Sequence record: PX930851.1
DNA length: 64,000 nt
Origin: a phage
Direction: 5' to 3' (one strand)
Shown: in pieces, positions 2,448 to 61,405 of the stretch
Layout: every line of letters begins with the position of its first letter
How positions within the stretch are numbered: the first letter of the stretch is position 1
Made by a program: the position numbers and the translations under genes
The notes under the pieces: generated by a model
Seen by the model: the letters and a program-made list of their open reading frames with translations, nothing else
The model's database searches: none
What the model was told of the DNA's origin: nothing

Positions 2448-4267
2448 TACTGGCTCATCCATTCTTTACGAAGGTCAGCATTATCTCCCATGAGCATTTC
2501 AAAAAGCTCTTTCCAGTTCTCAGGAAGTTTAACAACATCATATACTGGATTTTGAATCATCTCACGATATTCAGATTTTTCCAAAGAGCCAAGTCCCTTA
2601 ATATAACGGATGCTATGTTTAGGTAGAGCATCTTTAGCACTCTCATATTCAGCGACTGTATAAAACCATTCTTGTTTTTTACCGACCTGAGCGATGATTA
2701 CAGGAGTTTTGACAAAGCGAATTCTTCCTTGTTCAAACAGTTCTGGCCAATTACTAAAAAATCCGAGCAGAGAAGGATAAATGCTTCCTAGACCATCATG
2801 GTCAGCATCAGTCATAATAGCAATATTATGATAATTCAAGTTTTCAGCTTTTTCACCTAGAACTAAACCCGTGATTGCGCAAATATCAAACAGTTCTTTG
2901 TTTTTAAGCATATCAGCATATGACATACCCCAACTGTTGAGAACTTTACCACGTAATGGATAACCACCATGAAGTTCTTTATCACGAACATCAATAAGAT
3001 ATCCGATAGCAGAATCACCCTCAGTCAAGAAAAGAGTAGTGTCAGCATCTTTACCACAAAGATTCGCTTTGATATGTTTATGAACCTTAGCTTTAGAAGC
3101 CTTTTTAGCTGCTTTAGTTTCTGCTGCTTTTTCTGCTGCTAATTTACGTGCTAAAGCAGCTTCAATAATCGGCATTAAAATTGCTTCATTATTTAGAATA
3201 GCGCGTGAAATCTTTTTAGCATCAAGTTGAATATGACTACGAATTTCGCCAAATGGAGAAGTCAAACGCTCTTTAGTTTGAGAATCAAATCGCATGTTTT
3301 TCATATCACGGACAAACATAACGATAGTCAAACATTCTTTGACACGTGCTTTAGTCACATCAATTTTGAACTTACGTTTGATTTGCGGAATAAGGTCTTC
3401 ACAAATATCATCCATAACACAGTCAATGTGATGGCCACCATTCTTAGTGTGAATGTTATTCACATAAGTTAATTGACGAAATCCATCCGGTGAACGACCA
3501 ACCGCAATAGAACAATTTTCTTGTTCTTGAACAATAGCATGTTCATCATACTGTCGTGCATATTTCTTAAAATTGCCCTGAACCTTTTTACCATTAAAGG
3601 TAAATTGAATATCAGGATAAACAACAGCAAGTGTCTGGAGACGATCTAGTGTAATGTCAAGATAAACTTGGGACAGCTCATTAGTTTCAAATGACATAAA
3701 ATCAGGAATGAAAGTAACACGAGTTCCTTTCCATTTTCCTGGAATAGTTTCCCATGATTTATTTTCCATGCCATTTGAACAACGAACTACAATATTATTT
3801 TGACCATCGCCAGTTTCACCGATAAACATCACAGAAAAAATGTTAGTTAAACTAGAACCAACACCATTCATACCACCGGTGACACGTTCTTTATCATCAC
3901 CGAAGTTACCACCTGCTTTTGGAATAGTCCAGGCGGCAACAGGACCAGGAATTTCTTCACCAGTAGGTGTTTTAACCATCGCTTGTGGAATACCGCGACC
4001 GTTATCTTCAACTGTTACTTGATTGTTTTTAATAGTAACATTAATTTTATTCGCGAATTTAAACTTAGTACGAATACCTTCATCTACTGAGTTATCGATA
4101 ATTTCATCAATAAGCTTAACAAGACCAGGTACATACTGAACACTTTCCCATTTACCAAACAGAAAGCGCTCATGCATTTCATTAGCAGAAGAACCAATGT
4201 ACATGCCGCTACGCTTTTTGATATGTTCAATATCGCTCAGAATTTTAATTTCATTCTTAATCATCAC
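2447..4267 (-). CDS. 39: DNA topoisomerase II large subunit, uninterrupted (equivalent to T4 gp39 plus gp60)
   Basis: 606 aa; GHKL ATPase motifs (IDNSVDE, EDNGRGIP) and TOPRIM motifs (LTEGDSAIG, MTDADHDG); no gene 60 split and no mobA. Confidence 0.9.
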   Translation of the reverse strand: MMIKNEIKILSDIEHIKKRSGMYIGSSANEMHERFLFGKWESVQYVPGLVKLIDEIIDNSVDEGIRTKFKFANKINVTIKNNQVTVEDNGRGIPQAMVKTPTGEEIPGPVAAWTIPKAGGNFGDDKERVTGGMNGVGSSLTNIFSVMFIGETGDGQNNIVVRCSNGMENKSWETIPGKWKGTRVTFIPDFMSFETNELSQVYLDITLDRLQTLAVVYPDIQFTFNGKKVQGNFKKYARQYDEHAIVQEQENCSIAVGRSPDGFRQLTYVNNIHTKNGGHHIDCVMDDICEDLIPQIKRKFKIDVTKARVKECLTIVMFVRDMKNMRFDSQTKERLTSPFGEIRSHIQLDAKKISRAILNNEAILMPIIEAALARKLAAEKAAETKAAKKASKAKVHKHIKANLCGKDADTTLFLTEGDSAIGYLIDVRDKELHGGYPLRGKVLNSWGMSYADMLKNKELFDICAITGLVLGEKAENLNYHNIAIMTDADHDGLGSIYPSLLGFFSNWPELFEQGRIRFVKTPVIIAQVGKKQEWFYTVAEYESAKDALPKHSIRYIKGLGSLEKSEYREMIQNPVYDVVKLPENWKELFEMLMGDNADLRKEWMSQ

Positions 4268-15448: not shown

Positions 15449-15658
15449 TTAAATTACATGATTATTTATAATAAATTCTCGCGGAACGTTAAAATATCCG
15501 ATTTTAGTTAATATAACAACATCACCGTTAATAATTACCGGAGAATAATCTTCTGGAGCATTAAATTTCCAATGGGCTCTAATATTATATCCATCAGAAC
15601 CAAATGCTCGAGTAGCCGGTCTCCCGGCTTTTTGCCACGCGTAGAAATCAAATTTCAT
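15449..15658 (-). CDS. hypothetical small protein
   Basis: 69 aa. Confidence 0.45.
   Translation of the reverse strand: MKFDFYAWQKAGRPATRAFGSDGYNIRAHWKFNAPEDYSPVIINGDVVILTKIGYFNVPREFIINNHVI
15463..15470 (-). promoter_or_regulatory. T4 late promoter (TATAAATA) for soc
   Basis: exact TATAAATA on minus strand about 30 nt upstream of soc ATG. Confidence 0.65.
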
Positions 15659-15855
15659 TTTGAATGCTCTATAATTAATTTTAAGGCTTCTTCGCTGACA
15701 AAAATTTCGTCAGGACCTTCTTCTATAACCCAATCAACCATACGAAGTTGATTAGTTAAGAGCTCACATACGAGCTCCTTGTTATAATCTTTAAATAGCT
15801 GGTCAATACGTTTCTTATGGGCTTTCTTAAGCTGACGCTTATTTAAACGAGCCAT
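15655..15855 (-). CDS. hypothetical small protein
   Basis: 66 aa. Confidence 0.45.
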   Translation of the reverse strand: MARLNKRQLKKAHKKRIDQLFKDYNKELVCELLTNQLRMVDWVIEEGPDEIFVSEEALKLIIEHSK

Positions 15856-16373
15856 TAATAACCTCGGTCTTGACGAGCGAAGTTTTCAGCATTTTTCAGG
15901 TAATAAAGTTTAAAGATTTCTTCAGCTGACATTCCAAGAGCAATAAATTTATTCATGAAAAAGTGAAATTGGTCAATCAGTTCAAATTTAATTTCAAGCT
16001 GATCTTCGGGAGATAAATCTTGAATTTTCTTGGATTGCATTTCAGAATAACGTTTCTTCCAAGGTTTCCATACAGCAGAAGCTTCTTTTTCACCATTACT
16101 CATACCACCAAGAGAAGTATATAGTTCGCGAGTTTCATCTGCGATATAATCGTCTTGGTTTCGCAACCAAGCAAGAACTTCTCCTGCGGTTTCAAGTGAA
16201 TCAGGATGACGATTTGTTTCTGGTTTATCATTAGCCAAACGAATCTGTAAATGCCGCTGCATATCAAGCATAACCTGCAGTGGGTCAATATTGTGCATAA
16301 TATTCTCAGCATATGCACGATTTGCTTTATCAACACCTTCGATCAAATGAGCACATTCATTAAAGTAAGCCAT
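15855..16373 (-). CDS. 56: dCTPase gp56 (dCTP pyrophosphatase, MazG-like)
   Basis: 172 aa from ATG at 16373 (MAYFNECAHLIEG...); SD GAAAGGA; track ORF extends further upstream. Confidence 0.75.
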   Translation of the reverse strand: MAYFNECAHLIEGVDKANRAYAENIMHNIDPLQVMLDMQRHLQIRLANDKPETNRHPDSLETAGEVLAWLRNQDDYIADETRELYTSLGGMSNGEKEASAVWKPWKKRYSEMQSKKIQDLSPEDQLEIKFELIDQFHFFMNKFIALGMSAEEIFKLYYLKNAENFARQDRGY

Positions 16374-16444
16374 TATTTTTCCTTTCAATTCATGGGTTAG
16401 TAGATTAATTATACAATAAATATATAAAGCAATAAGGAGGACAT

Positions 16445-16645
16445 ATGGTACAAAAATTAATGGCACTTGTTAATGCCATAAAAGGTAATAAAAAACGTAT
16501 AGCTTTTACTATTTCTGCTATGGTAGGAATTTTACTCTGGAACTTTATTCTATCACCTGTTGCAATTGCGCATGGTATTAATATTCCAGTAGTTACTCTT
16601 GATACATTTGTAGATTTAGCATTTGCTTTAGTTGGGTTGATTTAA
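16445..16645 (+). CDS. small hydrophobic protein on the plus strand
   Basis: 66 aa, consensus SD taaggagg 4 nt before ATG; only plus-strand ORF not overlapping a minus-strand gene. Confidence 0.4.
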   Translation: MVQKLMALVNAIKGNKKRIAFTISAMVGILLWNFILSPVAIAHGINIPVVTLDTFVDLAFALVGLI

Positions 16646-17670
16646 ATCTTAGCATATTTAGATAGCCGCATTTTAGCCATCAACCCCTGGGCAATATTAT
16701 TTTTCATATATTCCATAATTTGTTCAGGGGTTGCACCTTCCTTTCTAATCATATCATTGACATCTTTTGATTTCCAGGGAGATTTATCCCAAAACATAAC
16801 CCTTTCTCCTGCATCAACTAATTTAGTCATTCGTTTGATAGTGTCAGGGTGACGAGGTTCATTATCTAAAACCCACACTCGTCTATCTTTAAATGGAACA
16901 ACTTCTAGGTCTAATTGACCACCTGTAATAGCTATACCATTTTCAATAAAAAGTGAATCTATAGGTCCTTCTAGAACATATACATCACCATCTTTAACTC
17001 GTTCAACACCGTAAATTTTTGTTGCCTCAGGATAAGCTTTAATGGTGATATATTTTTGAGGAGCATCTTTCTTTAATGCACGTCCTTGAAAAGACTCAGC
17101 TTTTCCATTAGCATTATAAATTGGAATAACAAGACGAGGCTCAGAAATTTCCTTTTTGTATGTTCCCGGTGCTATGCTATTAACTAATTTAGGCCATTCG
17201 GTTGTAAACCAAAGATATTTCCATTTATCCTTTGGAATACAACGAGCTTTTACATATTTTATAATTGGATGGTCTTCCGCCAGTTTATCTAATCTAACAC
17301 ATGACGGAAGAGATTTAATTATTTTCTTCTCAGGTTGTTTAGGAAGTTCTTTAGGTTTTTCTACTGGACGACTTTTACCTTTTTCTTTTCTTATTTCAAA
17401 GATATACTCACGATATAAATCAGGTTCAAACTCCTTTAAATATATTCCGATTGGTGCGTGATAGTTACAGTTATAACAATGAATATTTCCTTCATTATTA
17501 TCACCATAATACCATCCACGAGCTTTATTATGATCGGTTTTTGAATCTCCACAAACAGGGCATCTAAACCGCAATTTAAAAGTTGAACTATTATTTACTT
17601 GCGTGAATTTAGGTAAATGAGCTAATGCACGATACGCAAACTCATTATCAATCCAAGGTATTGATGACAT
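16642..17670 (-). CDS. 61: DNA primase gp61
   Basis: 342 aa; zinc ribbon CPVCGDS...CYNCNYH; TOPRIM-like VLEGPIDSLF. Confidence 0.9.
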   Translation of the reverse strand: MSSIPWIDNEFAYRALAHLPKFTQVNNSSTFKLRFRCPVCGDSKTDHNKARGWYYGDNNEGNIHCYNCNYHAPIGIYLKEFEPDLYREYIFEIRKEKGKSRPVEKPKELPKQPEKKIIKSLPSCVRLDKLAEDHPIIKYVKARCIPKDKWKYLWFTTEWPKLVNSIAPGTYKKEISEPRLVIPIYNANGKAESFQGRALKKDAPQKYITIKAYPEATKIYGVERVKDGDVYVLEGPIDSLFIENGIAITGGQLDLEVVPFKDRRVWVLDNEPRHPDTIKRMTKLVDAGERVMFWDKSPWKSKDVNDMIRKEGATPEQIMEYMKNNIAQGLMAKMRLSKYAKI

Positions 17671-17672
17671 TT

Positions 17673-17837
17673 TTACTCTTCTTTTTCTTTAGATTCCTCT
17701 TTCTTCTTTTTAGGAATCTGTTCAGGACCTTTATTTACTACAGCGCCTGACGTTGTTCCAGTAGAGATATTTTCAGGATTACCACCTGAATCTCCAGCTA
17801 CCATATCTTCTTTAATAAATTCTTTATATGTTTTCAT
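17673..17837 (-). CDS. small protein with capsid-targeting-sequence-like N-terminus, not in track
   Basis: 54 aa MKTYKEFIKEDMVAGDSGGNPENISTG...KKKKEESKEKEE; hand-translated. Confidence 0.4.
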   Translation of the reverse strand: MKTYKEFIKEDMVAGDSGGNPENISTGTTSGAVVNKGPEQIPKKKKEESKEKEE

Positions 17838-39437: not shown

Positions 39438-39606
39438 GGAGTTTAATTTCCTTAGCAACTGAACTAAATACAGCACGATCGCAAATCATCTGTTTATTCC
39501 ATTTAAGTACAGTATAATGAACATCTAGATCATCTACTGCTGTAACAATAACAATATGTCCGTTAACACGATAATACTGATCTCTTTTAATCTCTTTATC
39601 AACCAT
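39430..39606 (-). CDS. small ORF, not in track
   Basis: 58 aa MVDKEIKRDQYYRVNGHIVIVTAVDD...; follows early promoter 39637..39666. Confidence 0.3.
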   Translation of the reverse strand: MVDKEIKRDQYYRVNGHIVIVTAVDDLDVHYTVLKWNKQMICDRAVFSSVAKEIKLHG

Positions 39607-39636
39607 ATCAAATCCTCAAAGGCAATTCATATGTTA

Positions 39637-39666
39637 ATAATACCACAGTTTGAACTTCTTGTAAAC
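39637..39666 (-). promoter_or_regulatory. T4-type early promoter
   Basis: minus strand gtttac-N18-tattat preceded by tgg. Confidence 0.5.
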
Positions 39667-39747
39667 AACTTTGTGAAAATTATTTTAGGGAATGATAAGA
39701 AGGGAACGATAGCTTAGAATGGTAATATACAGAATGTGAGAAAGAAA

Positions 39748-39760
39748 GGCCCAGAGGGCC
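39748..39760 (-). other. short GC hairpin after nrdH
   Basis: ggccc aga gggcc. Confidence 0.3.
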
Positions 39761-39764
39761 CGTC

Positions 39765-43459: not shown

Positions 43460-43501
43460 AATAAAACCCTTACCTTAAATAGATAAGGGTATTTATTATT
43501 T

Positions 43502-61043: not shown

Positions 61044-61405
61044 TATAAGCTCTCAGTAAAGGTACGAGCGATAACGTCGCGCTGCTGTTCCGGAGTCAGA
61101 GAGTTAAAGCGAACTGCATAACCGGATACACGGATGGTCAGCTGCGGATATTTTTCCGGATGCTTAACTGCATCTTCCAGAGTTTCACGACGCAGAACGT
61201 TAACGTTCAGGTGTTGACCACCTTCAATTTTAACTGTAGGTTGTGTTTCAATTTCAATTTCACGGGCATGCAAACCGTAGAAAATTTCCGGGTCTACAAA
61301 AGAGTCCTCTTTAAAGGTTTTAGAGACAATAATTCGTGCTTGAATACCATCTTCAAAATAAATAGTACCTTTATGTGTGCCTTCAAGAATTTGATATGCT
61401 TTCAT
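61043..61405 (-). CDS. autonomous glycyl-radical cofactor (GrcA/YfiD-like)
   Basis: 120 aa; C-terminal half [59 protein letters not shown] with RVSGY glycine-radical motif; 3' half GC-richer. Confidence 0.8.

Follow-up and report, generated by a model that had tools for sequence, protein, structure and literature searches.

Imm and Spackle of phage T4 are small membrane or periplasmic accessory proteins that act in superinfection exclusion and are non-essential in the laboratory. Another small T4 gene, soc, is late-regulated and encodes a soluble capsid decoration protein. The T-even phages also possess a complete, characterised lysis set, with T as the holin, and pinholin S21 68 is a protein of ~66-70 aa with two hydrophobic helices, late expression and an inner-membrane location. 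Late promoters of T4 correspond to TATAAATA at positions -13 to -6; A takes the place of T at -13 in 9 of the 50 listed T4 late promoters, this position is poorly conserved among T4 relatives, and late transcripts run in either direction (PMC2988020; PMC1524935). In T4 middle promoters, a distance of 12 +/- 1 bp separates the -10 element from a MotA box of consensus (a/t)3TGCTTtA (PMC2988021).

We analysed a 66-codon plus-strand ORF in a T4-like phage sequence (record PX930851.1), the whole 64,000-nucleotide stretch being referred to below as the window. The ORF lies within a few kb of the genes for Imm and Spackle, which differ from it in being on the minus strand with early genes. It is about 1 kb from soc and is likewise a small gene with a predicted TATAAATA-type late promoter amid early and middle genes, but soc shares the strand of its early neighbours, whereas the ORF runs in the other direction and its product is a predicted membrane protein. 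RB32ORF030w and RB69ORF029w, two entries of PHROG 2024 that carry no function, are the same gene as the ORF of the window, in the same position and orientation and with no difference. We consider it likely that this is a genuine T-even accessory gene for a 66-residue inner-membrane protein, most likely expressed late.

The plus-strand ORF and its conservation

The window is a segment of a Tequatrovirus (T4-like) genome, 99.6% identical to several Escherichia phages over 15800-17700, and 95% of it is covered by minus-strand ORFs of at least 50 aa. A sequence-only reading had pointed to a lone plus-strand gene for a hydrophobic protein, preceded at 4 nt by a consensus Shine-Dalgarno, in a 268-bp gap between genes 56 and 61. 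All of these statements about the sequence were verified (Table 1). The gap extends from 16374 to 16641 and is filled by the ORF, the stop codon of which shares the palindrome TTTAAA with that of gene 61. Three plus-strand ORFs of at least 40 aa lie outside minus-strand coding sequence; this one is the only credible gene, the other two having no ribosome-binding site. A 53-aa plus-strand ORF at 39556-39717, in one of the few gaps of the minus-strand coding sequence (39607-39764), lacks a ribosome-binding site and is probably not a gene. The pattern AAGGAGG-N3-9-ATG occurs once in 64 kb, both strands considered, at the ORF itself. Because 0.65 occurrences were expected, this count is not significant on its own, and it is conservation that raises the ORF above chance.

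Table 1. Observed and predicted features at the gene 56-gene 61 junction (window coordinates)
Feature	Position	Strand	Remarks
Gene 56 (dCTPase)	15855..16373	-	Divergent from the ORF
TATAAT, predicted -10 of the gene 56 middle promoter	16408..16413	-	At MotA-box spacing
Predicted gp55-type late promoter core AATAAATA	16415..16422	+	Positions -13 to -6, A at -13; consensus from PMC2988020, PMC1524935
MotA-box match TATTGCTTTA	16425..16434	-	Part of the predicted gene 56 middle promoter; overlap with the 5' leader of the ORF
Shine-Dalgarno TAAGGAGG	16433..16440	+	Followed by the 4-nt spacer ACAT and the ATG of the ORF
CDS of the 66-aa predicted small membrane protein	16445..16645	+	ATG at 16445, TAA at 16643-16645; PHROG 2024; RB32ORF030w in RB14; unannotated in T4 reference records
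Terminator-like hairpin ATGGCATTAACAAGTGCCAT with T-run	16450..16479	-	Inside ORF codons 6-12, downstream of gene 61
Predicted transmembrane helix	16499..16570	+	Codons 19-42; invariant W32, N33, P38
Conserved HG-x3-P turn and short acidic, hydrophobic C-terminal helix (residues 52-63, predicted)	16571..16642	+	Codons 43-66
Gene 61 (DNA primase)	16642..17670	-	Convergent with the ORF; stop codons overlap

A tblastn search with the ORF protein retrieved 697-699 phage records, 89 of them at 99% identity or more and 196 below 60%. Synteny at the 56-61 junction showed the ORF equally placed and oriented in several Tevenvirinae genera, namely Tequatrovirus (with T4 and RB14), Mosigvirus, Gaprivervirus, Karamvirus and Kanagawavirus, as well as in two metagenomic T4-like contigs. 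In every relative it is convergent with the primase gene, whose stop codon it abuts or overlaps in most, and the GGAG(G) core upstream of it is preserved in all genera examined. When six Tequatrovirus copies were compared with the window ORF, five gave a dN/dS ratio of 0.1-0.2; in the sixth (RB14), all five changes are synonymous. From one genus to another, only 41-59% of the nucleotides are identical and synonymous sites have reached or nearly reached saturation, yet the frame stays open over 61-69 aa. These substitution patterns indicate that the ORF is under purifying selection and, together with its distribution, that it is a genuine gene, conserved among T-even phages, with a predicted membrane protein of 66 residues as its product.

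The family is also recovered by profiles. The product matches PHROG 2024 (function unknown) over its full length (E = 1.4e-31, residues 2-66 against profile positions 1-65 of 65). Among 1.84 billion cluster representatives searched with a profile, only 19 clusters reached E <= 0.001, all of 33-82 aa and forming a coherent family. When cluster P0118 was compared with the phage collection by tblastn, no match was obtained.

The gene is not new, since relatives already annotate it as a hypothetical protein; it is the T4 reference annotation that omits it. The window product is 100% identical to YP_002854367 of RB14 and to many other annotated hypothetical proteins. The RB14 record calls it RB32ORF030w, "similar to RB69ORF029w", and most other records simply call it a hypothetical protein. 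T4 has an intact copy between dam and gene 61 (3239..3439 of T4 locus L001) with two amino acid differences, and this copy is unannotated in AF158101, NC_000866 and MT984581. Literature searches returned nothing on this locus, whether by ORF name, by peptide sequence or among work on ribosome profiling and start-site mapping in T4. Although few viruses have been annotated as thoroughly as T4, these three records leave out a conserved, selected and probably late membrane-protein gene. Work built on the T4 annotation is blind to it, as with CRISPRi-ART guide libraries designed from annotated CDSs and the HIDEN-SEQ T4 gene table. Adding the ORF would be a small but real correction for what is otherwise an ordinary non-essential hypothetical accessory gene.

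The copy in T4 also bears on the origin of the ORF. The sequence-only reading had stated that T4 carries dam at the 56-61 junction, which is the case, and had suggested that the ORF could be a remnant of a replaced locus. In the alignment, an 899-bp dam cassette of T4 (L001 2327..3225) replaces 20 bp of the window (16414-16433) upstream of the ORF, and no Dam match with E < 1 was found anywhere in the 64-kb window. Thus, the ORF and dam coexist in T4, and the phage of the window merely lacks dam. We therefore rejected the remnant proposal, since T4 carries both dam and an intact ORF. A chance ORF, or one decaying where dam was lost, would be expected to look short and hydrophobic in AT-rich DNA, as this one does, and its absence from the T4 reference annotation would fit as well. 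Such an origin is nevertheless contradicted by the coexistence with dam in T4, by the conservation across genera and by the dN/dS values; the coherent family of 19 clusters obtained in the whole-library profile search also speaks against it, and we put its probability close to nil.

The side of the ORF that faces gene 56 is variable: T4 has dam there, Bas37 has dam and another ORF, and both Karamvirus and Kanagawavirus have a MazG-like ORF. Towards gene 61 the arrangement is nearly fixed, the sole insertion seen being a second copy of the small ORF, or its remnant, in Gaprivervirus. In Gaprivervirus VR26 (L004 2201-2401) this second copy is tandem and divergent and retains the motif; its 'MGTLFYQIWKL'-type form is also present in several Klebsiella T4-like phages. 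In the other Gaprivervirus record, EAWsc9 (L003 2193-2310), the 119 bp that separate the ORF from the primase gene hold an apparent decayed remnant of the second copy. Set against T4 (L001), the segment 15400-16433 of the window lacks segF in addition to dam. At the position of segF there is a 66-aa minus-strand ORF (15655..15855) that corresponds to RB14ncORF029c and bears the RefSeq label 'virion structural protein'.

The positional orthologue in phage Bas37 indicates that the ORF is dispensable in the laboratory. The supplements of a HIDEN-SEQ transposon study (10.1101/2025.11.20.689424) list bas37_0144, a 201-nt plus-strand gene (Bas37 91945-92145) with a 4-nt overlap with the 3' end of the primase gene, which we matched to the ORF by position and size. 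In these supplements, 20 of its 24 TA sites were hit, the gene was called non-essential, and two condition comparisons showed no significant change for it.

Predicted promoters upstream of the ORF and of gene 56

The TATAAATA-type element that marks a late (gp55-dependent) transcription unit is present upstream of the ORF as the predicted core AATAAATA, which is located 22 nt before the ATG and implies a transcription start at about 16428-16429. Such elements are rare in the window: WATAAATA was found 6 times on both strands, against 25.8 expected (about four-fold depleted), and the plus strand has 3 copies of ATAAATA where about 24 were expected. As a positive control, the same scan recovered the late gene soc, which is preceded by a minus-strand copy at 15463-15470. 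Further copies of WATAAATA are present at 43490, 56871 and 63903 (minus strand) and at 61357 (plus strand); the latter is inside a minus-strand gene and is not followed by a plus-strand ORF.

A late-type motif was found upstream of the ORF in seven of the eight T4-like lineages examined. The sequence xATAAATA precedes the ATG by 13-22 nt in T4, Mosigvirus, two Gaprivervirus, Kanagawavirus and both metagenomic contigs, in flanking DNA that cannot be aligned, and it is the only plus-strand copy, or one of two, in each 4-5-kb locus. In T4 the motif is in dam-cassette DNA unrelated to the window sequence, which indicates that it was kept or regained independently. Position -13 is G or C in T4, Gaprivervirus and Kanagawavirus, a less common deviation, and the Karamvirus ORF is preceded only by ATTAAATA. 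This pattern makes it most probable that the ORF is a late gene, transcribed from about 16428. After the onset of replication, the late RNA polymerase, with gp55, gp33 and the gp45 clamp, would recognise AATAAATA, as the motif and its conservation suggest. The resulting 16-17-nt leader, with its very strong ribosome-binding site, would then direct synthesis of the 66-aa product, for which the coding constraint is observed and translation is what we infer. Expression and timing of the ORF are thus predictions from motifs.

The same short region appears to serve gene 56 on the other strand. The sequence-only reading had described here an extended -10 for gene 56. The sequence in question, TGTATAAT (minus strand, 16415 to 16408), is indeed present and contains a perfect TATAAT, but its TG abuts the hexamer instead of having the canonical TGnTATAAT spacing. 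The minus strand also reads TATTGCTTTA (16434 to 16425), 11 bp and TATAAT (16413 to 16408). Since a MotA box 11 bp upstream of a TATAAT fits a middle promoter, the element is better read as a putative T4 MotA-type middle promoter for gene 56, and the extended -10 was set aside. On opposite strands, the putative MotA-dependent promoter of gene 56 and the late promoter predicted for the ORF would be interleaved within about 30 bp (16408-16434), the -13 to -6 element of the late promoter falling inside the spacer of the middle promoter. This arrangement could lead to mutual exclusion at the middle-to-late switch, and such a compact divergent middle/late pair would offer a tidy case for studying promoter competition during the switch.

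We also asked whether the hairpin ATGGCATTAACAAGTGCCAT might be a conserved terminator. Its sequence is the same in T4 and the other Tequatrovirus genomes but is not preserved in other genera; being confined to Tequatrovirus, it was dropped, and is at most a possible local feature.

Downstream of the ORF, no intrinsic terminator was predicted on the plus strand from 16645 to about 21200, so that a late transcript would probably run antisense into gene 61. This raises another reading, in which the key product would be the late plus-strand RNA, pairing with the primase mRNA to shut it off late in infection, with the peptide of secondary importance. In its favour, the ORF and gene 61 are convergent in all cases, usually with overlapping stop codons, and there are sites in T4 whose two strands are known to be transcribed at different times (PMC2988020). 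An antisense role would not, however, need the protein-level constraint that is clearly observed (dN/dS 0.1-0.2, invariant residues, conserved ribosome-binding site), and 119-200 bp lie between the ORF and gene 61 in EAWsc9 and VR26. We therefore consider it very improbable that the RNA is the main product. The suggestion of the sequence-only reading that the ORF could be antisense-encoded did not hold either: the ORF has its own intergenic space and only its stop codon in common with gene 61. Antisense and protein roles could coexist, an added effect of the late transcript on gene 61 being in itself rather improbable.

A long inverted repeat, CAACCCCTG ... CAGGGGTTG, is located within the 3' end of gene 61 (16681-16733). 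On plus-strand RNA the repeat would fold into a strong stem, and the T4, Mosigvirus and Kanagawavirus loci have stems of a similar kind. This predicted stem could be a structure of the gene 61 mRNA or a barrier to an antisense late transcript.

Predicted structure of the product

AlphaFold2, run with the family alignment, gave a model of the product with a mean pLDDT of 80 and helices at residues 2-12, 16-42 and 52-63. In a 20-sequence alignment, W32, N33, P38 and G44 are invariant and P48 is nearly so. The N-terminal part is rich in K/R in most of the 18 diverse members examined and contains five K/R and no acidic residues in the window ORF. The 21-28 residues that follow the membrane helix contain at most two K/R in 18 of 18 members, and usually one or two acidic residues. 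This charge distribution predicts a cytoplasmic N-terminus. The product is accordingly modelled as a protein with a basic cytoplasmic N-terminus, one transmembrane helix (W-N...P...G) and a short C-terminal helix, the latter predicted to be periplasmic or to form a second membrane span. On insertion, the basic end would stay inside, residues ~19-42 would cross the membrane, and the HG-x3-P turn with the short acidic helix would be on the periplasmic side or folded back into the membrane.

In view of what is generally known of membrane helices, the polar mid-membrane Asn, the Pro kink and the Gly/Pro turn suggest a specific helix-packing interface. The invariant Trp-Asn, the Pro five residues on and the Gly/Pro turn may thus mediate a specific helix-helix contact, late in infection, with another copy of the protein or with another membrane protein.

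Searches for described families gave little. Scans of the ORF and divergent homologues against Pfam, NCBIfam and PADLOC returned nothing meaningful, the Karamvirus copy giving only sub-threshold matches to Borrelia P13. The best hit of a PDB profile search was YejA, at E about 0.1, which is noise. Foldseek against BFVD recovered only the protein's own family, and tblastn of the ORF against the window showed no paralogue.

Lysis genes and distant family members

A small, predicted membrane-embedded and probably late protein could be a lysis-timing protein, that is, a holin, an antiholin or an accessory factor acting at the inner membrane with the T4 holin T, RI or the spanins. The copy of OE5505 is named 'Holin' in UniRef, and the GenBank record of EAWsc9 has 'holin family protein', but these labels found no support in any profile model tested: Pfam, NCBIfam and PHROGs yielded only PHROG 2024, of unknown function, and no holin model. 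The ORF product has the size of a holin and at least one predicted transmembrane helix. It matches no curated holin family and, instead of the charged C-terminal tail typical of holins, ends in a hydrophobic ...LAFALVGLI. Its gene lies between genes 56 and 61 in T-even genomes, away from t, e, rI and those for the spanins. Pinholin S21 68 resembles the ORF product in size and in its two hydrophobic helices, and also in the late expression and inner-membrane location predicted for the latter. There is, however, no sequence or model match between them, the charged tail is missing, the T-even gene is not beside an endolysin gene, and the T-evens use an unrelated holin, T. Transposon insertions are tolerated in the positional orthologue listed in the Bas37 supplements, and the T-evens already have a full lysis set. 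On this balance, we regard a lysis-timing function as unlikely, despite support from distant relatives.

This support comes from family members in unrelated phage contigs, which match PHROG 2024 at E = 1e-9 to 6e-11. There, the gene is co-oriented with endonuclease VII and downstream of tail genes, in an array that encodes, in order, a tail-tip protein, a transmembrane and coiled-coil protein of ~95 aa, endonuclease VII, the small membrane protein, and proteins of ~180 and ~106 aa; the start of the small membrane protein gene overlaps the end of the endonuclease VII gene. A T4-type lysozyme is found within 4 kb in three of five distant contexts, and the transmembrane and coiled-coil protein is nearby. 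Two genes for non-membrane proteins, however, stand between the family member and the lysozyme gene.

The distant contexts and the Bas37 data fit a late, envelope-related, possibly lysis-linked role; for the ORF itself, a late envelope or lysis-related role is a guess. Extended to the whole family, it would make PHROG 2024 a class of late inner-membrane proteins that tune end-of-infection envelope events (lysis timing, lysis inhibition or membrane steps of assembly), that T-even phages share with an unrelated phage group, in which they are translationally coupled to endonuclease VII, and whose late transcript might silence primase mRNA by antisense pairing. We hold this broader proposal to be unlikely; if it is true, a functional late gene has so far gone unlisted in the T4 reference genome. 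The reading that we prefer remains that of a T-even accessory gene for an inner-membrane protein.

Four metagenomic contigs of 16-40 kb (L014, L015, L018 and L020) show that the array is shared by an unrelated group of phages, in which the T4-like items are a T4-type lysozyme and T4_Cef. The presence of a serine recombinase in L014 suggests that these phages may be temperate. ATAAATA precedes the first gene of the array by 21 nt in L014 and by about 47 nt in L020. In a further contig of 2.2 kb (L021, 129-1383), a distant member of 59 aa is directly followed by a 352-aa protein with a RelA/SpoT domain.
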